Assembly (NCBI GenBank): GCA_947089765.1
Contig: CAMULM010000001.1
Location: forward strand, 139,756-203,755
DNA length: 64,000 nt
Reading direction: 5' to 3'
DNA from: an uncultured Roseburia sp.
GTDB taxonomy: Bacteria > Bacillota > Clostridia > Lachnospirales > Lachnospiraceae
The notes beneath the pieces are model-generated. The model was not told the DNA's origin. It saw only the letters and a program-made list of their open reading frames with translations, and did no database searches. The translations under genes and the position numbers were made by a program. Positions 1,605 through 63,121 of this stretch are shown piece by piece. Each line of letters begins with the position of its first letter. Position 1 is the stretch's first letter.

Positions 1605-4600
1605 ATGAAAAGAATGGTGGCAATGCTGCTTGCCGGATGTCTGGCATTTCAGACATGGATAGGCAATGCAAAACCGGTGTTTGGGGCGCAGACTGCATCT
1701 GGGTCAGTGGATTTTGGCGAAGCGCAGGCTGCATCTGAGTCAGTGGATTCAGGCAAAGCGCAGAGCGTTCTGGAAGTAGGGGTGCGTTCTTCCGCTCAAT
1801 TCCCATTTCAGGGTGACGTAACCGTACAAATCGGACGTGGCAGCGAAGTAGTGGAATCAAAGGATTTAAAATTTGAGGGTTCTAAGGCTTCCTTTGCAGC
1901 GGCAAGGTTTGAAGTGTCAGAAGGAGATTACACAGTTACTGTGAAGTCAGCCCAATTTGCGGACTATACGCAGGATGTGAAAGCGCAAAATGGCTGGAAA
2001 ACCAAGATTTTAATTTCTCCATCAAGAATTGAGACGGGCAATGAAGCGGCTCCGGGCTGGATTCGGGTCGGCGACGTCAATCAAGATGGAGTAATTGACC
2101 AAACGGACATTGACGGCATGATGTCGAAAATCCGTGAAGGCTCTATGGAAGCTGCCTTTGATCTCAATCAAGATGGGAAAGTGGATATGGCAGATTTGCA
2201 GTATATTGTGCAAAGCATAGATGAACATAGGGAGTCCACAGTGGAGAAGCTTGGCATAGTCCAAACGATCCAGCAGGCTGAGGGCGCAACTATGGAAGGA
2301 AACGTCAACGACTTTTTAAATGGAACAGGCGCGCTGAAATTAAAGCCTGAAAATGCAAATGCGCAGATTTCAGCGGAAAATCCTGTTGGGATTAACTTTA
2401 CATTAGTGGAAGATACAAAAAAAGCGGTAGAGATTCAAGGAATTGTCGTTCATGCTCCGGTAACAGATGAACAGGGCGGCATTTCCAATGAAATAACGGA
2501 AGGGGAAGTGATTTATACAGACGCGGAAGGAAAAGAAACGTCGGTTCCGTTTTCTGCCGCCGCAAAGCCAAAGCAAAAAAAGAACAGGGCGCTATTTGCT
2601 GCAAATGCGTCAAACCGCGCAGCGACTATTTCGGCAGACATTGAGGCTGACGGTTCGCTGGTGTTAGATTTTGGAGGCCAGATTGCAGTAAAGCGGGTAA
2701 CGATTAAAATTACCGGCACGAAAAAGACGGAGCCTTTGGTGAATATTGCAAAGGTTGATTTTGTCAACGATATGGAAAAAAGGATACCGGCGCCGCAGAT
2801 GGACATTCCGACGCTTGGAGTTCCACAATCCGTAGATAAAGGATTGATTGTATCTTGGAACCCGCAGAAAAATGTGACGGGGTATGAGGTATATATTTCA
2901 GGTCCTGTGAAAAACCAAGAAGAACATGAAACACAGATTGTGCGCGTATCTAATATTACGCATACAATATCATCTATAAATGACAAACCGCTTTTAAACT
3001 TTGAAAAATATACAATAAAAGCGCGTTCTGTCAATGGAGACTGGAGCAGTCCATGGTCAAACGAAGTAATCGGAGAGCCGAAGCCGACGAAACTTCCGGC
3101 GGCGCCTGATAATGTATCTGCGACAGGCGGGTACCGGACGATAGAAGTGTCATGGAAAGACATGGACGACGCAAACGGATACATGGTTTATTATAAAAAG
3201 ACAAAAGATGCGGATACAGAGTACCGTCCGGTGATCGAAGGATTTACACAGGTAAAAGAAGGAACCGGAAAATTAAACGCAACGCATTATGTCATTGCAG
3301 GCTTAGAGGACGAAGTGGAATATTCCGTCTATGTCGTAGGCTGGAATGACCTTGGCTGGGGCAGCCCGTCACTGTCAGCATCCGCGCTTACGAAGTTAAA
3401 TGTCCCGCCACAGCTTCCGAATTATAAACTGTTGAATACTTCAAATGGAGAAGGGGCAGTCAGCGCCCATATCACAGCAGCGTCATATGGCGGGCATGGC
3501 GGCGCAAAGATGGTAGGCAGCGCGTTAGATACAGCGGAAAAAAGCGCGCTTGGCTTAGTGGATAATAACTATGGATCTTATTGGGAAAAAACAGACTGGG
3601 ACGATGGCGTGGCTTATCCGGCAGACAATAAGGGATTTACAGTGACGCTGGATCAAGATTACAAGATGAATTTTATCACATTTGCATCCGCGGACGAAAA
3701 AGCAGCGCTTCAATATGCGCGGATTGGGTATTGGAATACAGCGTCTACAGGAAAACAGAACGTGGGCGCGCGTCTGTATAGAAAACTTGACTCAAGGAAC
3801 AATCCATACTATATTATTAAGCTTGATCAGGCAATCACTGCAAATAAAGTAAATATTTGTCTGGGACGTGACAGTGTTAGGGCATCTATGATGGTAGGTG
3901 AAATCCATTTCCATTATTATGATTCGCTGGAAGATGACATTATGGGCTTATATACAGACGAAATGCACGCTACACTGCGGGCAGACGTAACGGAAAGCGT
4001 CATTCAGGCATTAGAAGCCCGTTTAGAGCTTGTAGACGAGGCAAGCGGTGAAAAACATCCGCTTTACAATGAACTGACTTTAGAATTAAAGACAGCAAGA
4101 GAGATTTTAAATTCAAATCTGGCTTGCGCTTATGAAGTGGAAAACCAGATTACGGGAAGCAAAGACGGGCATCTTGGATTTGGCGGTTTAAATTCATGGC
4201 AGCCGGTTGGGAAAACAGTATATGCCGGTGAAAGTCTGCTTGTTTATGTCGGGCATAATACAAAGAGAACCGGAGATAAAGCAAGCCTGCAACTTGTGTT
4301 TACGCAACAGCACGCAGAAGCGGCAACGCTTTCAAAAGCAGTCAGCTTAAAAGTGGGAAGAAATGAAATTACAGTTCCCCAGATTGTCAGCAAAGAATTT
4401 GAACGCGGCGGACAGTTATATGTAGCATATACTGGAAACAATGCAAACGATAAGTATGCAGTCCGTATAAGCGGCGGAAGCGATATTCCGGTCTTAAGCG
4501 TGTATGGAAAAACACAAGAACAACGCATGGCGGCGATTTCCGCTTATGTAAAAGAGCTTGAGCAATATGTCGGAACGATTGAAGCGGGACATGCGGCAAA

Positions 4601-53291: not shown

Positions 53292-54494
53292 ATGGGAAGT
53301 TCAAAATTTATGGGTAAGGTAACGAAATGCGCGGCTCTGGCTCTGGTGTTTGGAGTGGTTGGAGGAACAGCGTTTTCCGGAGCGAATTATTTTATGGAAA
53401 GTAATCTCTTTGCAGATGGAAAAGAAGTGACTGAGGAGGGAAAGACGATTGATTCCGACAAGATTCAGCCGGTGAGCACAGGGGCGACTTCCGCTTCCAC
53501 AGATATTTCAGGCGTGGTAAAAGACGTTATGCCATCGATTGTATCTATTACGAGCATGACGCAGCAGGAAATTTTAAGCTTTTTTGGACAGAACAGAATG
53601 TTTGAAAGTGAGAGCAGCGGTTCCGGAATTTTGATTGATAAAGATGACGAGTATTTGTATGTTGCGACGAATAATCATGTGGTAGAAGGCGCGAATGCTT
53701 TGACGGTGCAGTTTTCCGATGAGACGACGGCTCCCGCAACGGTGCGCGGCACAGATCCGGCCGATGATTTGGCGGTTGTCCAGATAAAGCTGTCAGATTT
53801 GACAGAGGAAACTTTGAAAACAATACAACTTGCGGTTATGGGCGATTCGGAAAAGATTTCTGTCGGGGATTCCGCGATCGCTATCGGTAACGCGTTAGGG
53901 TACGGTCAGTCGGTGACAACTGGCGTGATTAGCGCATTAGGGCGTGAGGTGACATTTCAGGATGAATCTACCGGAGAGACCGTAATGAGCCGTCTGATTC
54001 AGACGGATGCGGCAATTAATCCGGGCAACAGCGGCGGAGCGCTGATTAATACAAAAGGCGAGGTAATCGGGATTAATTCTTCAAAATATTCAGATACGAA
54101 GGTAGAGGGTATGGGCTTTGCGATTCCAATCGCGACGGCAGGCCCGATTTTGGAAGATTTGGTTGCAAACGGGAAAGTGACGACGACAGGCAGCCCATAT
54201 CTTGGCATTTATGGAAAAGAGGTAACGGAAGAAGTTTCCAGCCAGTACCAGATGCCGCGTGGCGTTTATGTTGCGCAGGTGATTGAAGGCGGCGGAGCCG
54301 AGGCAGCCGGCATAATCGAGGGCAATATTATTACGAAAGTGGGAGATAAGGAAATCGTGTCCATGGACGATTTAAAAGAGGCGCTCAGGGATTATCAGGT
54401 TGGAGATGCGGTAATGGTTACAGTTCAGGTAGCGGACAACGGCGGGTATTTGGAAAAGGAGGTTTCCGTTTCATTAACGGCAAGGACGGATTGA
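53292..54494 (+). CDS. htrA: HtrA/DegP-family trypsin-like serine protease with C-terminal PDZ domain
   Basis: N-terminal TM anchor. Catalytic triad context (ATNNHVVEGA, DLAVVQIK, GNSGGALIN). PDZ-like GAEAAGIIEGNIITKVGDKEI. Confidence 0.85.
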   Translation: MGSSKFMGKVTKCAALALVFGVVGGTAFSGANYFMESNLFADGKEVTEEGKTIDSDKIQPVSTGATSASTDISGVVKDVMPSIVSITSMTQQEILSFFGQNRMFESESSGSGILIDKDDEYLYVATNNHVVEGANALTVQFSDETTAPATVRGTDPADDLAVVQIKLSDLTEETLKTIQLAVMGDSEKISVGDSAIAIGNALGYGQSVTTGVISALGREVTFQDESTGETVMSRLIQTDAAINPGNSGGALINTKGEVIGINSSKYSDTKVEGMGFAIPIATAGPILEDLVANGKVTTTGSPYLGIYGKEVTEEVSSQYQMPRGVYVAQVIEGGGAEAAGIIEGNIITKVGDKEIVSMDDLKEALRDYQVGDAVMVTVQVADNGGYLEKEVSVSLTARTD

Positions 54495-54757: not shown

Positions 54758-55063
54758 TCACAATACATTTATTTCTGCCGTCAGTTTATCATTTATCTTG
54801 ACCGGCACAGTATTGTTTTCAATCATATACTGACAGTCAATATATTCTTTACTTACAGGACAAACATTCTGAATTAAAAAAGCTCTATATTTACCATTTA
54901 CATATCCGAATCGTAAACCATCGTATTCCTTATAATGTTTTTTCTTTTTATTATATAAATATCTTATACTTTTCCGTTTTAGATGATATAGGAACCATCC
55001 ATAAATATCCTTCCATTTCAAAACAATAAAAACAGGGTCTCCCATGTACACCCTTTTCATCAT
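54758..55063 (-). CDS. Hypothetical small Lys/Tyr-rich protein in an AT-rich region
   Basis: ORF only; low GC. No recognisable motif and no obvious RBS (aagggtgtacatggg). May be non-coding. Confidence 0.25.
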   Translation of the reverse strand: MMKRVYMGDPVFIVLKWKDIYGWFLYHLKRKSIRYLYNKKKKHYKEYDGLRFGYVNGKYRAFLIQNVCPVSKEYIDCQYMIENNTVPVKINDKLTAEINVL

Positions 55064-55159: not shown

Positions 55160-55188
55160 CAAAAGCGCTCCGCTGTTAAGCGGAGCGT
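55160..55188 (-). terminator. Rho-independent terminator of the rplM-rpsI operon (minus strand)
   Basis: gcgctccgc-tgttaa-gcggagcg hairpin, followed on the minus strand by cttttgt. Confidence 0.5.
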
Positions 55189-56449: not shown

Positions 56450-56480
56450 GAACAGCAAAATAAAAAACGGCAGGGCATAA
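56450..56480 (-). terminator. Rho-independent terminator ending the four-gene cassette (minus strand)
   Basis: Minus-strand cggcagggttatgccctgccg hairpin followed by ttttttatttt, 20 nt after the stop of the gene at 56499. Confidence 0.65.
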
Positions 56481-56498
56481 CCCTGCCGCCGCTGCCGT

Positions 56499-57638
56499 TT
56501 AGGTTTCTGAGGGAGGATTGTTTTGATCCTCTTTTTTGAGTTCGATTCCTGAAATTAATTTGTTATAGTCTATTTTTTTCTGGCTGCATTGTCTGGAAAT
56601 TTCATCTGCATGTTTTTGCGCTTCGACGGACTGGTTCTGCGCTTCTGCAAGCAGGCTGTAATAATTAGATTCTTCTTTGGCATAGGAATCTAAACTGCCT
56701 GTGTCGCTTACGCTTTTTAGCGTAAATAAGCAGGAAAGCTCTGCCGCATCGGCAGGTTCCGTTTGGGCAGGTTTTGAAGCGAGCGATTTTACAGCGTTTG
56801 GAATTTGGGTCTGGAAAGTGTTCCAGTATGTATTTAACTGGTCAAGGTTTGCCTGTAGTTGTTCCGCTTCTTCTGTTTCATTTTTGTTGATAAGTTCCTG
56901 AAGTTTTAACTGGTATTGGTTTTGCTGCTGGCTGCCAATCCGTTTAAACTGCTGTAATTGTTCATTTAATGCTTTTTCGGCGGCGGACTGTTGGGTTTCT
57001 AAAAGCAGGATTTCCTGATTCAACGATTTGATTCTTTCGCTTCTGTCTTTTCGTTCTTCCGGCAGTTCCTGTCCGTTTGCATCTTTTATTTTCGAATCAA
57101 TAAGAGCTGGGGATACGGAAGCCGCCATCATATCAAGGACTCTGGCAAGGCCTTCCGGCGTCCCATGGTTGGTCGCCCGCACATCGACGTGGTATTTGGC
57201 GGAATTGTCCGTACTTCTAGTGTTGGAGCTATGGGAGCTGACGCTTCCGCTGATATTGACTTTTGCAATTCCAAGATTAATAGAGCCGGAAGCAGCCGCG
57301 CTTAAATCGGTTGCTTTTTCACTTTTTTCGCTTTCCTTGACTTCCATATCAAATAAGATATTCACTTCATCGACCTGAAGGTTTGGAATTGGGACAATTG
57401 CAAGCATTGGCACGTCGATTTTCATTTCGTCTTGATTTGTGGTGCCGTCTTCGTTATAAGATTTTTTCTCAAATTGGAACGAGGCTTTTCGTGTATTCCC
57501 TTTTTCGTCAAAGCCTACTTTATTGATAAATGACGCTGTGCTGTCTGCAAGCTGCATACTTGCATCTGCAGCCGCGCGTAAAGGCCCGCCGATAAGGTTT
57601 CCCATATCTAGGCCTGAAAACTGATCTCCGATCGCCAT
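56499..57638 (-). CDS. Uncharacterized protein B of the cassette: N-terminal approximately 180-aa domain (paralogous to gene 59734-60594) with Ser/Thr-rich loop, then approximately 200-aa Gln/Glu-rich coiled coil
   Basis: Start MAIGDQFSGLDMGNLIGGPL preceded by AAGGAGG at an 8-nt spacing (the upstream ATG at 57659 would place this RBS inside the coding sequence). Domain blocks align with gene A (see findings). Ser-rich ISGSVSSHSSNTRSTDNS. Heptad-like EQLQ... tail. Confidence 0.6.
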   Translation of the reverse strand: MAIGDQFSGLDMGNLIGGPLRAAADASMQLADSTASFINKVGFDEKGNTRKASFQFEKKSYNEDGTTNQDEMKIDVPMLAIVPIPNLQVDEVNILFDMEVKESEKSEKATDLSAAASGSINLGIAKVNISGSVSSHSSNTRSTDNSAKYHVDVRATNHGTPEGLARVLDMMAASVSPALIDSKIKDANGQELPEERKDRSERIKSLNQEILLLETQQSAAEKALNEQLQQFKRIGSQQQNQYQLKLQELINKNETEEAEQLQANLDQLNTYWNTFQTQIPNAVKSLASKPAQTEPADAAELSCLFTLKSVSDTGSLDSYAKEESNYYSLLAEAQNQSVEAQKHADEISRQCSQKKIDYNKLISGIELKKEDQNNPPSET

Positions 57639-57651
57639 AAGCGCTACCTCC

Positions 57652-59367
57652 TTATTCATTTACTGGTAAAAATGTTTCGATTAGTTCATCTGCTGAAAAT
57701 TCTGCTAAATAATGAATGGTATTTTTGAAAATTTCAGATATCGCGCCAGTTTCCTGATACAGATCTGTTTGGGCAAAAGCCATTCCGTTTATCAGTACAT
57801 TCGAGAGATTTCCTGTAGAAAGGTCTAGTTGGATTAGAGGAATATCTCCTTGCTGGAAACTGTGATGAAGGGCTTCTTTTAACACATTTTCCTGTATATT
57901 TTGTATAAAGAACGTTGTTTTTAGATTTTCCTGAATGAGATTGCAGTAGTCATCAGCAATCCTATCTTTATCTTCGTAATCCGCATAAATTGAAAGCGCC
58001 CGCGCAAGTTCTGAAGTCCGGACAGGAACTAGACGCAGGAGAGGATTTTGCCGGATTAAAGAAGTCAAAAAATCAGAGAGTTCTTCAATGTGTTCCATAC
58101 AATACTGGCTTGCAGTGAAAAAACCATTTGTAAAATCTGGATAAAAAAATTGAACATTATCATAACAAGTTCCATCTTTGCCGTCAAATGTGAAATATGA
58201 TACGGCGTCGTCCCCAAAAGCGTTCTGACGTGAACAAAGACTGTCCCGAATCATTGTGGCATTTAGGCTGGCAGAAGTGATGACGTTTATCTGAAAGGCG
58301 CATTCGGCATCGAGGACGATGGGGCCGTTTTCTGTGGGCATGATATTGTCCTGATGAAGATCGGTTACGCCTGCAAGTTTTGCCGCATAGGCTAAGACCC
58401 CCATTTTTTTGTAGTAACTGTGTAATTCCGTTTCCGTAAAATCCGGCTTTTTCGTGACAAGTTCTTCCATTCCGTAGTTTGCATTGTCAAAAATAACCAT
58501 ACACGGCAGATGGCATTCATCGGGAAGCCGTTCGTTTAAATAGGTGATGAAGCTGTTTGGCCCTGTAAATAAATAATCCGCTTTCATATTCCGCGGCTTA
58601 TATGCCCATTGGCTGGAATTTCGTTCCGCAAACAGTACCTGTCTGCCAAGCATATGTGGGTCAGATCCGGAAACGCGGATATCATATCCTTCTAAATCAA
58701 CGCTCACAGCGCCTAATAGGAAGTTTACGGTATTTTCAAAACGTGTATGTACAAGCGTATAACGGGTTTCAGACGGTTCTTCCGCATATAGATTTATGCT
58801 GACGTCCATAATAGCGGAGGCATATAAATCAGAGAGCTTTTGCGGAGAGTTTAAAAGCGGCCGGATCATATGCGTTTGTCCGATGTACTTTTGGATAAGC
58901 GGAAGGGGATTTACTTCCATAATGTCCCAAAATGACAATTCGGCTTCCGCAAATGGAGCAATTCCCTCATTTATTCTAACGGGAACTGCCATTTGATTTA
59001 AAATAGGAAGCAGTTCCATAAACTGATGAAACAGTTCACCGGAATGTATGGCTTCCATACAGCAGATAACGCCGGAGCAGGACTGTGGTTCGGAAAGGGT
59101 GGATTCCCGTAGTTTGGCAAGTTCATCTGAAATGTCCATGTTTAACCGTTTGGAAAGCGAAGCTGCCGCCTGATCAAACAAATCTTCTGTATTCTGAGAA
59201 GTTGTAATCATTGCATCTCCTTTCTGGGTTTTGGCATTTTTCAGTTTCATTTTTGGGTCTGGCAAAGATACGCTGTATTGCGCTTCGTCTGCCAATATAG
59301 GGCGGTAGTCTGCCAGATAATAATAATATATGGGAAGCTTTTCTCCATTATGTGTTTGTACCGTCAT
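57652..59367 (-). CDS. Protein-kinase-like fold enzyme related to the dehydratase (DUF4135) domain of class II lanthipeptide synthetases (LanM), standalone, no LanC cyclase domain
   Basis: AYKPRN (Lys) ... TDLHQDN (D-x-H-x-x-N catalytic loop, about 58347-58362) ... VLDAE, with the second Asp exactly 17 residues after the first, as in LctM D242/D259. Start at MTVQTHNG (ATG 59365-59367) chosen for its GGAGG RBS at 9 nt. The ORF could extend to a GTG at 59487, overlapping the upstream gene. Confidence 0.6.
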   Translation of the reverse strand: MTVQTHNGEKLPIYYYYLADYRPILADEAQYSVSLPDPKMKLKNAKTQKGDAMITTSQNTEDLFDQAAASLSKRLNMDISDELAKLRESTLSEPQSCSGVICCMEAIHSGELFHQFMELLPILNQMAVPVRINEGIAPFAEAELSFWDIMEVNPLPLIQKYIGQTHMIRPLLNSPQKLSDLYASAIMDVSINLYAEEPSETRYTLVHTRFENTVNFLLGAVSVDLEGYDIRVSGSDPHMLGRQVLFAERNSSQWAYKPRNMKADYLFTGPNSFITYLNERLPDECHLPCMVIFDNANYGMEELVTKKPDFTETELHSYYKKMGVLAYAAKLAGVTDLHQDNIMPTENGPIVLDAECAFQINVITSASLNATMIRDSLCSRQNAFGDDAVSYFTFDGKDGTCYDNVQFFYPDFTNGFFTASQYCMEHIEELSDFLTSLIRQNPLLRLVPVRTSELARALSIYADYEDKDRIADDYCNLIQENLKTTFFIQNIQENVLKEALHHSFQQGDIPLIQLDLSTGNLSNVLINGMAFAQTDLYQETGAISEIFKNTIHYLAEFSADELIETFLPVNE

Positions 59368-59471
59368 TTTTTTTAAACCTCCGTTTGACATAAAATGTGT
59401 TTTTAATCCCATGAAATAGGAGTGCATAAGGTGTAAATTCAGCCATTTTTTCAAAGTATCCATTTTAAAGC

Positions 59472-59744
59472 CTACAATTCTAACCACATCGGTTTTCGGG
59501 GAAAGCCGATATGGTAGGTGGTCTGCTCCATTGTCAGTTCATGTTCCCCGATGGCGTACCTGCCAATAGAAATATCCTTGCCGATAATGACCCCTTTTGG
59601 GCTTTCGTTTAGACATCGGTTTAACAAGGCCGCCTGCTGTTGTTTGGATTCCTCAGAAAGCGGGTGGTTCGGGTTTATGCTGCCAAGTGTAATTGTTTTA
59701 ATAAACCTTATATCTTCATAATGTGTTTTGCAGTCAGGATTCAT
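59472..59744 (-). CDS. Small (90 aa) soluble protein of unknown function, second gene of the cassette
   Basis: AAGGAGG RBS 8 nt upstream of the ATG. The start overlaps the stop of the upstream gene by 11 nt. Sequence MNPDCKTHYEDIRFIKTITLGSINPNHPLSEESKQQQAALLNRCLNESPKG... has no recognisable family. Confidence 0.5.
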   Translation of the reverse strand: MNPDCKTHYEDIRFIKTITLGSINPNHPLSEESKQQQAALLNRCLNESPKGVIIGKDISIGRYAIGEHELTMEQTTYHIGFPRKPMWLEL

Positions 59745-60594
59745 TTGGGGCGCCTCCTTTTTTGAAGGATTCCACTTTATTTTCTAGCATCGCTTCTTTC
59801 ACGCTTATGAGTTCTGTTAAGATTGTTTGTCTTAATTCTTCATATTCCTTTGGGTCATATGGAGCGTTAGAGAACTCTTTAGACAGGCATTCCGGCTCTA
59901 GTTCTTCTTGTAAAGATTCTCTTGTTTCCATATATTCTGTGATTTCCTGATGCAGTTTATGTAACGCCGCTTCTTGCTGTCTGAGGGAACGTTGGAGTAA
60001 AAAATCATCTTTTTCAGAATTTTGCACAATTCCGTCACTTGAAATGGGTGAAGCATCGATTTGCTTTGCGACAGGATTTGCGTTTAGAATGTCTAAAATC
60101 CGCATATAGCCTTCCGTTTCGTCTACTGCTTTTAAATCGATTTTATAGTTGACAACGGGCTGTGCGGCGGATTTTTCCCGCTTCAGGGAACTAATTTTTC
60201 CAACAGTGAGCGGGGCGTTTTGCTCGTTTTCGGAAATGTGGACTTCCGTTGAAAATTCTAGCGTGGCATTTTTTATTTTTAAGTTTGGGATTTTTATAAT
60301 TGATAACAGAGGCACTTCGATTTGGACGCTTTCCATATAGGGTTCATTGTGTTCTGCCGGGTGTAAGCGTTCATATGCCAGATTTAATTTTTTCAGGTAC
60401 AGTGTTTCTTCGCCGTTTCTAAGTTTCACTGTGCCCATGCTTTTGATTTCGTCAAGGATTGCCAGTGAAAGCCTTGCATTTGAGGAGGCAATGGCGTCAA
60501 TGGGCGCGTAGACTAGGTCATTAAGCGGAAGAAATTGCTTTCCGCTTGTTATTTTATCTTGATTGGACTGTTCCTTTTGTTCTGTTTCCTTCAT
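59734..60594 (-). CDS. Uncharacterized protein A of the cassette (287 aa): N-terminal approximately 180-aa domain paralogous to gene 56499-57638 plus helical acidic C-terminal tail
   Basis: Start MKETEQKEQ preceded by GGAGGGG 5 nt upstream (the ORF track start at 60651 lacks an RBS). Blocks LVYAPIDAIASSNARLSLAILDEI, IEVPLLSIIKIPNLKIKNATLEFSTEV and KIDLKAVDETEGYMRILDIL match B. Confidence 0.6.
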   Translation of the reverse strand: MKETEQKEQSNQDKITSGKQFLPLNDLVYAPIDAIASSNARLSLAILDEIKSMGTVKLRNGEETLYLKKLNLAYERLHPAEHNEPYMESVQIEVPLLSIIKIPNLKIKNATLEFSTEVHISENEQNAPLTVGKISSLKREKSAAQPVVNYKIDLKAVDETEGYMRILDILNANPVAKQIDASPISSDGIVQNSEKDDFLLQRSLRQQEAALHKLHQEITEYMETRESLQEELEPECLSKEFSNAPYDPKEYEELRQTILTELISVKEAMLENKVESFKKGGAPNES

Positions 60595-60703
60595 GGCTTC
60601 CCCTCCATATCCATGCTTGTCCATGGTTATTCTTACTTTTAGTATATGCAAGAGATTTTGGAAATAGAACCAGATTTTAGAAATAATGGTAAAATTTTTA
60701 TTT

Positions 60704-61492
60704 CTAGTCTTTATTTTTCAGTTCGACTGTATCCGCCCAGAACCTTTTTGGGATATTTTGAATTTGGAGTTTTGGATTTTTCCGCGCTTCTATGGCAATC
60801 GTTTCAAAAAAAGCAAGCCAGAGATTTTTTAAGCGTGTCTCATCTGAGGATAAATCCTCTGTAAGTTCCATCGGAAAAGATGCAGCGTCAGTGATGAAAT
60901 AACCTTTGCCCGACGGGTGGGCGGCTGCAATCCGGCGCGTGGCATCGTAGATGATAAAATTCTCTAATGGGAGACGGTCGGTAAAGTGCTCCGCCAAAAT
61001 TGGCAGGACATAATTTTTGGCATGAATCTGTGAAAATAAAATTCCGGTTTTTAATTCTGCAAAACGAAGAAATTCTAACAGATGGTGGGCTTCATTCAGT
61101 GTTTGGCGGCGCAGTTCAAAAATGCAGGCGATACAGGGTTCGCCTAAATAGTCTAAAACTTTTGCGCCAGCCGGAAGCGTAAGCGCCATAACGACAGTCT
61201 GGTAAATGGCATTTGCTTTATCCATAGCCAATGCGCGGCAGTTTCCGTTTGCCAATGCGCTGCTGCAAATTGTTTCATAGAAGTGGGCGCCAAGACGTTC
61301 TGTCAGGGTACGCGCCACTTTCCGGCTTTTTTCAAAATCGGTTTTTACCGGAATATATTCTGAAAAAAGCGTAAGCGTTCCGCTTTGGTCGGAGGAAAGC
61401 TGTATATTTTTGTGCCCATAGCGGGACGCCCATGCATCATAGATGCCTGTTAAAATTCCGTCAATACTGTCTTCACATTGAAATACATACAT
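60704..61492 (-). CDS. DUF4130/TIGR03915-family protein (putative DNA-metabolism/UDG-like partner of the radical SAM DNA repair protein)
   Basis: Start MYVFQCEDSIDGILTGIYDAW with a GGAGGCGG RBS (the listed ORF start at 61507 is a TTG whose following codons are that RBS). This family invariably neighbours the TIGR03916 radical SAM gene. Assignment from recalled family features. Confidence 0.6.
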   Translation of the reverse strand: MYVFQCEDSIDGILTGIYDAWASRYGHKNIQLSSDQSGTLTLFSEYIPVKTDFEKSRKVARTLTERLGAHFYETICSSALANGNCRALAMDKANAIYQTVVMALTLPAGAKVLDYLGEPCIACIFELRRQTLNEAHHLLEFLRFAELKTGILFSQIHAKNYVLPILAEHFTDRLPLENFIIYDATRRIAAAHPSGKGYFITDAASFPMELTEDLSSDETRLKNLWLAFFETIAIEARKNPKLQIQNIPKRFWADTVELKNKD

Positions 61493-62852
61493 GTTTGCCG
61501 CCTCCAAATGAAACGTCGTCGAATAGGGAAAGCTGCCGGTAGCCTTCTTCCCGCAGTTCTTTTGGGATCTGCGTTTTGTCGGAGAGCAGGTTTCGGCAGA
61601 TATAGTCCTCGTCCAGCTTGGTCGGATACATCATATGGCCGGAACAGGTGATAAAATATAAGGCGCGCTTTAGGACGACGCCGATTTTTTTTAGGTCGCA
61701 AAAATCAAGCGTAGAGCCGCGGCGGGCAGCTACAATGCGTTTGGCGGATTTTGCGCCTATGCCCGGGACGCGGAGTAAGGTTCTATAGTCGGCAGTCTGG
61801 ATTTCGATTGGAAAAATCTCTAAATGGCGAAGCGCCCAGTCACATTTCGGGTCCAGATAGACGTTGAAATTCGGGCGGTCTTCGGAGAGAAGCTCGTCTA
61901 CGGTAAAATGGTAGTAACGTAAAAGCCAATCCGCCTGATAAAGCCTATGTTCCCGCAGGAGAGGAGGGCCGCCGGAAAGGACGGGAAGGTTTGGATTTTG
62001 GCTGACATTGACGAACGCGGAATAAAAGACGCGTTTTAAGTCAAAGTTTTGATAAAGACCTTCTGCAACGCTCATAATTTGATAATCGTTTTCAGGCGTG
62101 GCTCCGATGATCATCTGTGTGCTTTGTCCGGCCGGCGTAAATCTGGGGGCGTTGCGGTACAGCATAAGTTCATTTTTGTTCTGGGCAATGCTGTTTTGGA
62201 TTTGGCGCATGGGTCTTAGGATTGTGCGGCGGGATTTACAGGGCGCAAGCTCTTTTAAGGCTCTGTGGGTGGGCAATTCTAAATTCACGCTCATGCGGTC
62301 TGCAAGAAATCCCGCTTTTTCAATTAAGAGAGGGTCAGCGCCGGGGATTGCCTTCACATGGATATAGCCTTGAAAGCGGTAGAAGGAACGCAGGCGGCAG
62401 ACAACTTGGTAGATGAGATCCATGGTGTAATTTGGGGACTTGATAATGCCGGAACTTAAAAATAACCCTTCAATGTAGTTGCGGCGGTAAAATTCTATAG
62501 TAAGCGCGCAGATTTCTTCCGGCGTAAAAGTGGCGCGGGGAATGTCGTTTTCGCAATTATTCTGGCAGTAGGAGCAGTTAAAAATACATTCATTGGTAAG
62601 TAGAATTTTCAGCAGTGAGACACAGCGGCCATCTGCGGAAAAGGAATGGCAGATCCCGCAGGATTTTGTATTGCCGATTCCCATGCCGTCGCCGCGTCTG
62701 TCAACGCCGCTGGAAGTGCATGCAACGTCATATTTTGCGGCGTCTGCCAGAATGGTGAGTTTTTCCATAATCGTGGGGGACAGGTGTGTGGCAGGAGAGC
62801 TTTTTTGTAAAATGGGGTCTGGGATTAAGGTGATATTGGCAGAGTTCTTCAT
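61473..62852 (-). CDS. Putative DNA modification/repair radical SAM protein (TIGR03916-like) with C-terminal helix-hairpin-helix
   Basis: Radical SAM CxxxCxxC (NECIFNCSYCQN). N-terminal KLTILADAAKYDVACTSSG. HhH LLRVPGIGAKSAKRIVAARR. AAGGAG RBS before the ATG at 62852. Overlaps the downstream gene by 20 nt. Confidence 0.75.
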   Translation of the reverse strand: MKNSANITLIPDPILQKSSPATHLSPTIMEKLTILADAAKYDVACTSSGVDRRGDGMGIGNTKSCGICHSFSADGRCVSLLKILLTNECIFNCSYCQNNCENDIPRATFTPEEICALTIEFYRRNYIEGLFLSSGIIKSPNYTMDLIYQVVCRLRSFYRFQGYIHVKAIPGADPLLIEKAGFLADRMSVNLELPTHRALKELAPCKSRRTILRPMRQIQNSIAQNKNELMLYRNAPRFTPAGQSTQMIIGATPENDYQIMSVAEGLYQNFDLKRVFYSAFVNVSQNPNLPVLSGGPPLLREHRLYQADWLLRYYHFTVDELLSEDRPNFNVYLDPKCDWALRHLEIFPIEIQTADYRTLLRVPGIGAKSAKRIVAARRGSTLDFCDLKKIGVVLKRALYFITCSGHMMYPTKLDEDYICRNLLSDKTQIPKELREEGYRQLSLFDDVSFGGGKHVCISM

Positions 62853-63121
62853 AGCAATGCTCCTTACTTGCAAACAAATGTTCTTGATAATGTATTTTAT
62901 CATGTCATTATTCAAATTGCAAGAGAAAATCGAATATTTGTTCTGAAAATTTTTGGAATAATGAAGTCTTTACATTCTCCTTAAAAGGGGAGATGAAATA
63001 GCAGGGAGGCGGATATGTTGACGCGGTCTTTTGCCTTTTGTATAATGATGCCAGAGTAGGGACGGAATGGGCTGATGATGGCAAAAACCGGATTTGTCGG
63101 AGCGGAAAAGGAGAATATAAA

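Follow-up and report, generated by a model that had tools for sequence, protein, structure and literature searches.

Results

A four-gene cassette on the minus strand

The window analysed here, a 64,000-nucleotide stretch of contig CAMULM010000001.1 from an uncultured Roseburia sp., carries at 56450-60703 a cassette of four minus-strand open reading frames (ORFs). They encode, in order, a protein with a DUF2589 domain (A), a small protein (S), an enzyme of the LanM dehydratase type known from lanthipeptide pathways, and a second DUF2589 protein (B; Table 1). All four are present at the coordinates assigned to them in an earlier sequence-only reading of this DNA (the start of the enzyme is taken up below), and that reading was also right that each has a GGAGG-type ribosome-binding site (RBS; 60606-60600 for A, 59757-59753 for S, 59382-59378 for the ATG at 59367 of the enzyme gene and 57651-57647 for B) and that the start of S overlaps the end of A by 11 nt. 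The TAA stop codon of the enzyme gene (57654-52) adjoins the GGAGG of B. The terminator that had been described is a stem-loop with a T-run, lying about 10 nt away from the position first given for it. No transmembrane helix or signal peptide is predicted in A, S, the enzyme or B. Identical proteins are found on 200-460 public contigs; in an 'Eubacterium sp.' metagenome-assembled genome (MAG) at NCBI the four are the consecutive entries MCI9428336-39, labelled only as DUF2589, DUF4135 or hypothetical proteins.

Table 1. Positions of the cassette genes, domains and terminator in the window
Feature	Position	Strand	Basis or description
Gene A, A-type DUF2589 protein, 286 aa	60594-59734	-	Pfam PF11655
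Gene S, conserved 90-aa protein without Pfam family	59744-59472	-	
X2 domain, N-terminal ~65 residues of the 603-aa enzyme form	59263..59463	-	tblastn/BLASTP homology to small ORFs
Stand-alone LanM-type dehydratase-domain enzyme (DUF4135), probable 603-aa form, without cyclase domain	57652..59463	-	Pfam PF13575
Gene B, B-type DUF2589 protein, 379 aa	57638-56499	-	
Ser/Thr-rich hairpin of B, aa 105-148	57195..57326	-	Candidate modification or functional loop, putative role
Intrinsic terminator closing the operon	56490-56466	-	11-bp stem, 7 GC pairs, 3-nt loop, T-run

Conservation of the gene order

The cassette is a real, tightly coupled unit whose genes travel together. The order A-S-(X2)-enzyme-B recurs in loci L001/L002, L003/L009 and L004, where the enzyme is 43, 40 and 99% identical, respectively, and the flanks vary from radical-SAM/DUF4130 and rplM genes (L004) to an amidase gene (L001) or S8 peptidase and FAD oxidoreductase genes (L003). 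A word-indexed homology search returned only three enzyme-related clusters (99, 43 and 40% identity), all in the A-S-enzyme-B order, and a scan of one genome per species across 185,579 species added one more copy (L009, a Lachnospiraceae MAG) and two distant relatives. The sequence-only reading had allowed that homologues of the four genes might never lie together; the neighbourhood survey found them co-localized in L001-L004 and L009.

The DUF2589 proteins A and B and the small protein S

A and B match the Pfam family DUF2589 (PF11655) over almost its whole length, with 62.6 bits for A (E=7e-17, profile positions 1-153 of 154) and 139.7 bits for B (E=1e-40, positions 2-152 of 154), both above the gathering threshold of 23 bits. 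The two proteins are paralogous, as had been proposed (BLASTP E=1e-10; hhalign 99%, E=3.5e-18), and the domain they share, which had been taken for a novel one, is this existing family of unknown function. The related statement that none of the four products matches a family with known function holds in part: three of the four match Pfam families, two of those without known function. The domain spans aa 23-172 of A and aa 12-172 of B, and is followed by a helical tail of ~100 aa in A and a Q/E/K/L-rich helical tail of ~195 aa in B. Because the tails are rich in E, Q, K and L and have Pro/Gly-free runs of 41-49 residues, they are probably helical; the heptad signal for the coiled coil that had also been suggested is weak. 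Orthologues of A occupy the matching position in L001, L003, L004, L007, L009 and L079.

B-type DUF2589 proteins form at least 1913 clusters in a 90%-identity database and are present in Bacillota, Pseudomonadota, Bacteroidota, Desulfobacterota and phages, with ~50% identity in the domain between the Lachnospiraceae protein of the window and those of Pseudomonas, Desulfovibrio and Reichenbachiella. The B domain contains a putative hairpin (...SGSINLGIAKVNISGSVSSHSSNTRSTDNSAKYH; Table 1) in which 15 of 44 residues are Ser or Thr, and residues N139, R141, D144, S146, A147, K148, Y149 and H150 are invariant or nearly so across 80 homologues. Its family-averaged hydropathy alternates strictly over columns 112-134, and in the monomer model its predicted local distance difference test (pLDDT) score is below 50. 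The amphipathicity of this hairpin is not distinctive and was not taken as an argument that B might be a pore former; a structure search with the moderate-confidence model of B showed no likeness to gasdermins or other pore formers. Comparisons of A and B with holins, spanins and known secretion or injection components revealed no similarity, and profile searches of PADLOC, PHROGs and NCBIfam returned nothing for A, S or B.

Homologues of S form 442 clusters of proteins that are all ~90-100 aa long, unnamed and without a Pfam domain. The family has 27 invariant columns, a mean column identity of 65% and the motif GEHxxxxQxxxYHxGFxRKPxW. S is modelled as a compact beta-alpha-beta-beta fold (pLDDT 85), for which a comparison with known structures gave no significant match.

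The DUF2589 module in other genomes

Viral and metagenome collections were scanned with an alignment of the B domain, and hidden Markov model searches were run on all fetched loci. The A-type gene is adjacent to the B-type gene in 137 of 156 B-carrying loci. Of 80 cellular DUF2589 loci, none of which encodes a DUF4135 enzyme, 68 have S, as against only 1 of 65 viral contigs. We refer to adjacent A-type and B-type genes plus the ~90-aa S, by our own definition, as the DUF2589 A+B+S module; this set also occurs in Pseudomonas (L005), in Reichenbachiella (L006), on a deltaproteobacterial plasmid (L012) and in at least 60 metagenome loci. Among the viral contigs carrying A+B are genuine phages that have genes for terminase, portal protein, DNA polymerase and ribonucleotide reductase; in these the A+B pair lies at gene-module borders like an accessory gene pair.

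The LanM-type enzyme, or kinase, is an accessory part of this module: in the survey it is confined to the window's own clade, and it is absent from each of the 51 closest Firmicutes-type DUF2589 loci. The sequence-only reading, which saw in the four genes a possible new system, was right about a co-travelling unit but not about a self-contained four-gene invention, the kinase being accessory to a widespread A+B+S core. We regard as solid the conclusion that the cassette is a rare, kinase-bearing variant of the DUF2589 A+B+S module, specific to one lineage (gut Lachnospiraceae, with an 'Eubacterium sp.' MAG).

Firmicutes-type modules have helical tails on A and B and an extra short ORF (X) in the same slot; a layout that recurs among them is Int - Amidase_2+Phage_lysozyme - A - X - B - S - STAS - GNAT - SpoIIE/PP2C+HATPase_c_2. 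Among the 34 such loci with enough flanking sequence, an endolysin-like gene (Amidase_2+Phage_lysozyme) is found in 20, STAS in 16, SpoIIE/PP2C in 14, an RsbW-like kinase (HATPase_c_2) in 13 and a tyrosine recombinase in 11. The phosphatase and kinase genes lie inside the A-B slot in L103 and L108; in L103 they are unfused, and in L108 (6561-9917) a single ORF of 1118 aa fuses an X1-type ORF in frame to Acyl_transf_3, HAMP, SpoIIE/PP2C and HATPase_c_2 domains. The A-B slot thus varies in its accessory content and is occupied time and again by Ser/Thr phospho-enzymes; in the window the LanM-type enzyme lies there. Pseudomonas DUF2589 loci carry a GH19 enzyme and a small transmembrane protein. 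PADLOC models matched few, scattered members of 131 representative neighbour proteins, with no enrichment.

Several further arrangements were seen at DUF2589 loci. A second Firmicutes architecture, A-S-var-Y-B-TM-Ami, has a 115-176-aa protein, Y, in the S-B slot (L098, L107, L109, L111, L113-L116, L122 and L125-L127); an hhalign probability of 80% against A-type proteins suggests that Y may be a truncated third DUF2589-like paralogue. In the Firmicutes locus L007 (6908-9804; B 68% identical) the order is A, a 50-aa X1-like ORF, B, a 72-aa ORF and an LCM-family methyltransferase gene, S is absent, and a PLD/helicase gene (RE_NgoFVII, ResIII) and a methyltransferase gene lie nearby. Downstream of A-B-S in the Pseudomonas sp. 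locus L005 (9324-11767) are genes for a 101-aa Y-like, a 57-aa transmembrane and a 128-aa secreted protein. After them come a GH19 enzyme that also has a peptidoglycan-binding domain, a secreted protein with an EndoU domain and an ORF of 86 aa, and the whole group looks like a lysis or toxin set. Four IMG/VR contigs binned as giant-virus MAGs (GVMAG; L015-L017 and L059) have a B-type gene, 43-46% identical, with a convergent A-type gene (218-312 aa) on the opposite strand, where pairs elsewhere are co-directional.

A LanM-type dehydratase domain without a cyclase

The enzyme matches Pfam PF13575 (DUF4135) with E=2e-25, and its only matches in the PDB are the lanthipeptide enzymes LicM2 (6ST5, E=1.6e-12) and CylM (5DZT, E=2.7e-12). 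A partial match to the LanM model TIGR03897 (68 bits against a cutoff of 304, over profile positions 139-271 only) is the sole significant NCBIfam match in the cassette, and the Pfam domain LANC_like has no match in the enzyme. A phmmer search of the PDB with the R...T fragment returned only noise, and a MAFFT alignment was used in its place, comprising 40 sequences: the enzyme, P0002 and P0003, 17 further stand-alone relatives and 20 LanMs of ~1000 aa. With roles taken from CylM mutagenesis (PMC4550811), and in the numbering of the 603-aa form, the P-loop residues D268/H270, for elimination, correspond to CylM D252/H254, the lysine K289 to K274, the catalytic-loop residues D368/H370/N373 to D347/H349/N352, the metal ligand D385 to D364, and the elimination pair of the KA domain, R477-x5-T483, to R506-x5-T512. 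Every CylM residue implicated by mutagenesis sits in a conserved column, these columns being invariant among the LanMs with the elimination pair as R-x5-T/S, and the alignment with the LanMs reaches the C-terminal DIP motif, ~60 residues before the end of the enzyme. The LanM dehydratase signature without a cyclase, first noted in the sequence-only reading, is therefore upheld with the full catalytic set, and the enzyme is predicted to be a complete dehydratase domain, competent for both phosphorylation and elimination.

Enzyme start and the X2 domain

Public annotations of the enzyme are split between 571 and 603 aa; NCBI PGAP, like the sequence-only reading, starts it at 59367 (571 aa), within an open frame of 59487-57652. 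The 32 codons upstream of 59367 are conserved as protein in L001 (enzyme 43% identical), and the N-terminal domain X2 is homologous to separate small ORFs in L009 (BLASTP E=3e-13) and L079 (E=3e-11), which in tblastn find the window at 59457-59275 (E=8e-10 and 2.6e-8, respectively). Both observations favour the longer form, and most likely the enzyme starts at the ATG at 59463, 8 nt past the stop codon of S, rather than at 59367. Internal initiation could also occur, given the strong RBS before 59367.

In the window, L001 and L004 the enzyme bears X2 as a fused domain; in L003 and L009 X2 is a separate ORF before the kinase gene, and in L079 it stands between S and B in a kinase-free A-S-X2-B locus whose B protein is 71% identical overall and 91% in the domain. 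This pattern of fused, split and orphaned forms indicates that X2 belongs to the DUF2589 module as one of its components and that the enzyme became attached to it. The occurrence of X2 both free-standing and fused is Rosetta-stone evidence for an interaction between enzyme and module. Across clades the N-terminal region of the enzyme varies and the catalytic domain is conserved. Homology between X2 and X1, the small ORF of the partner-switching loci (motif LNLRLL...WVE), was considered and set aside: only a 16-residue motif is common to both, the hhalign probability is 2% and hmmsearch gave E=2e-4 to 0.05 in a five-sequence database, so that we treat the likeness as a positional analogy.

Other stand-alone DUF4135 enzymes

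An exhaustive HMMER search against 1.84 billion representative proteins yielded 1300 relatives of the enzyme (E<=1e-3), of which only four reached E<=1e-30. At lengths of 410-830 aa, the ~80 best relatives lack a cyclase, and canonical LanMs appear only from about E=1e-12. Two of the stand-alone relatives, only about 26-28% identical to the window enzyme, are also operonic with a B-type DUF2589 gene: P0251 (L161/L162; B-type DUF2589 - 284 aa - 185 aa - VWA - DUF4135, beside a TIR+STALD protein) and P0258 (L164; DUF2589 - 284 aa - 174 aa - 119 aa - DUF4135). These operons have only B-type DUF2589 and the enzyme in common with the window cassette, so that two distant enzyme clades are tied to B-type DUF2589. 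The 284-aa and ~180-aa proteins of the second clade were examined as possible relatives of A, S, X or Y and showed no detectable relation. Flanking the operon in L161, a 612-aa TIR protein with a STALD (Sir2/TIR-associated SLOG) domain (2333-4171, minus strand) and a second TIR-like protein of 1236 aa form a neighbourhood of the conflict-system type.

Other relatives lie in different surroundings. P0248 (L010, 5146-7053) and the enzyme of a similar cluster (L011, 5248-7227), both 29-32% identical to that of the window, follow the AAA ATPase gene in extracellular contractile injection system (eCIS) clusters, one from Anaerobacterium chartisolvens and the other from a Bacillota MAG, with Tail_P2_I, eCIS_core, CPCC, AAA, DUF4280 and Pvc16_N genes; this is the usual eCIS payload position and suggests a kinase/lyase toxin. 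P0256 (L165, 1-9722) is encoded a few genes downstream of a 5047-aa TcA-like ABC toxin (VRP1, ABC_toxin_N, TcA_TcB_BD). P0245 and P0250 (L159, 1882-4550, and L160, 1085-4846) accompany pairs of ~200-aa RhiA-family proteins (PF27136), an 81-aa transmembrane protein and a 184-aa Cys-protease-like protein, the last of which resembles the slot protein of the DUF2589 locus L111 (8923-9486).

Discussion

Whilst the fold of the enzyme is known, no kind of system described so far corresponds to this one in composition, wiring and probable protein substrate. The window enzyme is like CylM and LicM2 from the capping-helix region to the C-terminal DIP motif and keeps all catalytic residues, but it has 603 aa where LanMs have about 1000, lacks the LanC cyclase and carries X2 at its N-terminus instead. 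Unlike LanM clusters, the cassette has no LanC, LanA-like precursor, LanT or LanP, and the neighbours of the enzyme are DUF2589 proteins, in line with the earlier view that this is not a lanthipeptide layout. The dehydrazole enzyme CcaM (LanMbC) is a divergent DUF4135 dehydratase that forms dehydro-amino acids without lanthionine rings and independently of a leader (PMC10676384), which shows that a DUF4135 domain can work outside classical lanthipeptide logic. However, CcaM needs for its activity a zinc-less class III cyclase domain to which it is fused, its substrate is an azole-containing peptide of 30 residues, and a YcaO enzyme is encoded with it (PMC10676384); because of that fusion we rejected the dehydrazole enzymes as a stand-alone precedent.

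Likenesses to other systems are partial. Genes for RsbU/RsbV/RsbW-type partner switching occur, in 13-16 of the 34 sister loci, at the accessory position held by the DUF4135 enzyme in the window, which suggests by analogy that the same logic, control of the module by Ser/Thr phosphorylation, may operate in both. The kinase folds are unrelated (GHKL as against the lipid-kinase-like LanM-type enzyme), and the LanM-type enzyme is predicted to be able to remove the phosphate again by elimination, so that the switch would be irreversible. The stand-alone DUF4135 homologues at eCIS and toxin complex (Tc) loci have modular, clade-specific N-termini resembling loading signals, whereas no sheath, tube, baseplate, Pvc16 or Tc gene lies in the 10 kb around the cassette. 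Like type 10 secretion and the holin-endolysin lysis cassettes of phages, many DUF2589 loci have genes for Amidase_2+GH24 or GH19 enzymes that lack a signal, along with genes for small transmembrane proteins, and A+B pairs occur in phages. This likeness is one of gene neighbourhood only, and A and B have no transmembrane helix and the window no endolysin. Against PADLOC-DB v2.0.0, which covers defence systems to 2023, the cassette proteins gave only chance-level matches (E=0.012-0.029), which agrees with the earlier statement that no known defence module is present. A search of full-text literature, in which most subscription-journal papers were outside coverage, gave two incidental mentions of DUF2589 and none of PF11655; within the same partial coverage we found no report linking a cyclase-less DUF4135 enzyme to DUF2589, eCIS or Tc loci.

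Building on the observed gene structure, synteny, family memberships, conservation of catalytic residues, fusion and fission of X2 and alternative accessory genes, we tentatively favour a model where the enzyme phosphorylates or dehydrates a co-encoded DUF2589 protein and so switches an envelope- or conflict-related assembly. X2 would dock the enzyme onto the A/B/S assembly, and the enzyme, using ATP, would phosphorylate Ser or Thr of a protein of the module, the likeliest target being B-type DUF2589 and the candidate site its Ser/Thr-rich loop. The enzyme may next beta-eliminate the phosphate to give dehydroalanine or dehydrobutyrine, and the modification would switch the DUF2589 complex in its assembly or its activity, possibly irreversibly, dehydration being possible since the elimination residues are intact. 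In sister loci, the STAS/PP2C/RsbW partner-switching set would hold the same control point. The protein post-translational modification proposed in the sequence-only reading is therefore retained as our best mechanistic guess.

Action on a co-encoded protein, most likely B, is favoured because characterized DUF4135 enzymes modify adjacently encoded substrates, every one of them (LanM; CcaM, PMC10676384) acting on a substrate encoded beside its own gene. It is also favoured by the fusion of the enzyme to the module component X2, by the two independent enzyme clades that share only B-type DUF2589 with the enzyme, and by the phosphorylation-based switch at the same place in sister loci. As for the cellular output, the gene neighbourhood only (endolysin-like, small transmembrane and defence-type genes, and carriage by phages) suggests an envelope-, lysis- or conflict-related role for the DUF2589 complex. 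A bolder version of the model, which we consider unlikely, is that the LanM-type enzyme acts on a folded protein and not on a peptide, installing phospho-Ser/Thr and then dehydroalanine or dehydrobutyrine in the DUF2589 loop, and thereby irreversibly triggers the assembly of a new envelope-active or conflict complex.

A number of observations weigh against the modification of a DUF2589 protein as a control step. The Ser/Thr-rich loop of B is just as conserved in many kinase-less loci, so that the loop did not evolve for the enzyme, which would instead modulate a pre-existing functional element; the hydropathy of the hairpin alternates no more strongly than that of the domain's other strands. 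The model of B is of only moderate confidence and no structural relative was found for B or S, which makes the output function of the DUF2589 complex a conjecture. The parallel with partner switching is loosened in that X1 is tied to X2 by gene position and the 16-residue motif only, that the X1-PP2C fusion is a single case, and that tblastn with sister-locus proteins found no endolysin, STAS, PP2C or RsbW genes in the 64-kb window. B is a candidate substrate only, and docking, the chemistry performed and the cellular output are inferred. Lastly, the DUF4135 clades at the eCIS payload position (L010/L011) and beside the TcA-like toxin (L165) fit a delivered effector better.

The main rival, which we hold to be somewhat improbable, is just such an effector: the enzyme would be a toxin or payload that irreversibly phosphorylates or dehydrates Ser/Thr in another cell or a phage, with A/B/S(/X) as co-toxin, carrier or release apparatus, release by lysis as for Tc toxins and eCIS, and X2 as a structural component fused to the effector, comparable to 'specialized' VgrG/PAAR/Hcp-toxin fusions. 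Besides the homologues placed directly after the eCIS AAA ATPase or beside the 5047-aa toxin, this reading draws on the clade-specific N-terminal region joined to a conserved catalytic domain, on the toxin-like enzymes that follow other DUF2589 loci (EndoU and GH19 in L005, Aspzincin M35 in L006), on the Cys-protease-like protein in the A-B slot of L111, which has relatives in the RhiA-kinase loci, and on the frequency of endolysin-like genes beside DUF2589 loci. Yet the four cassette proteins have no signal peptide or transmembrane helix, A and B are unlike any known secretion or injection component, X is mostly a small, enzyme-free ORF alone across loci, and sister loci hold regulatory enzymes (STAS/PP2C/RsbW), not toxins, at the same place. 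Moreover, no immunity-like gene accompanies the kinase, which lies inside the operon between S and B and not at a variable 3' end.

An anti-phage or abortive-infection role, in which A/B would be an effector that damages membranes, has an amphipathic, Ser-rich beta-hairpin and is kept inactive until infection is sensed by the kinase, seems decidedly unlikely; it concerns the cellular role, and the chemistry of the favoured model is compatible with it. Carriage of A+B by real phages at gene-module borders, like accessory 'moron' genes, would suit such a role, as would the TIR+STALD protein adjoining the distant DUF2589-VWA-DUF4135 operon, the PLD-helicase and methyltransferase genes adjoining L007, the movement of the cassette among genomic contexts and the alternating hydropathy of the B hairpin. 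However, PADLOC has no model that fits any of the four cassette proteins, few of the representative neighbour proteins match defence models, the window cassette lies between DNA-repair genes and rplM/rpsI, and there is no structural likeness to gasdermins or other pore formers. RiPP-like biosynthesis (of a peptide that the ribosome makes and that is then modified post-translationally), which the sequence-only reading had entertained, is very improbable. It would have the enzyme dehydrate a cassette-encoded precursor, S or the A/B tails, to yield a secreted peptide, and could appeal to an enzyme family for which lanthipeptide and dehydrazole pathways are the only other known settings, to the complete set of dehydratase residues and to a small ORF directly upstream of the enzyme. 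But S is highly conserved, compactly folded and found in hundreds of loci without a DUF4135 enzyme, including the 68 of 80 cellular loci counted above, a cyclase, a leader protease, an ABC exporter, an immunity gene and a Cys-rich core are all missing from the window, and NCBIfam finds no NHLP, Nif11 or lanthipeptide precursor model. Chance juxtaposition of four unrelated neighbours, or mis-called ORFs, is scarcely credible, being already refuted by synteny, with the same order at 40-43% enzyme identity amid different flanks; the cassette genes are translationally coupled, their exact products recur on hundreds of public contigs, and the DUF2589-DUF4135 link arises independently in a second enzyme clade.

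The DUF2589 module is widespread, yet without an assigned function or solved structure, and is repeatedly wired to Ser/Thr phospho-enzymes; its link, in two independent clades, to cyclase-less LanM dehydratase domains gives a handle on DUF2589 function. If a co-encoded protein is modified, a LanM-type dehydratase would for the first time have a protein as its substrate, and the enzyme would be the basis of a new kind of irreversible post-translational switch, extending lanthipeptide-type dehydration to protein regulation. DUF2589, present across bacterial phyla and phages, would gain its first function, and 'orphan' PF13575 genes, now counted as lanthipeptide clusters by genome-mining tools, would be redefined. 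If the enzyme is instead a payload, it would represent a new toxin chemistry, kinase plus lyase, common to eCIS, Tc and DUF2589 loci. Both readings are directly testable, with four small genes from a common gut bacterium.

Genes flanking the cassette

Apart from the four cassette genes, the interval 54-64 kb holds a radical SAM/DUF4130 pair, rplM/rpsI and genes for an HtrA-like protease and a response regulator; an Rfam search of this interval found no regulatory RNA. The pair at 60704-62915, overlapping genes on the same strand as A and directly upstream of it, encodes a radical-SAM protein with helix-hairpin-helix motifs (TIGR03916, 685 bits) and a DUF4130/TIGR03915 'putative DNA repair' protein. 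The 110-nt gap upstream of A holds no convincing promoter, and as no terminator was detected between the pair and A, transcription may run on from the DUF4130 gene into the cassette. On the other side, beyond the cassette terminator, a TTGACA-17-TATACT promoter-like site for rplM/rpsI lies at 56423-56395. Between rpsI and the HtrA-like protease gene (53292-54494, plus strand) is a 101-aa minus-strand ORF without a Pfam match (54758-55063), flanked by terminator-like hairpins at 54589-54551 and 55165-55188.

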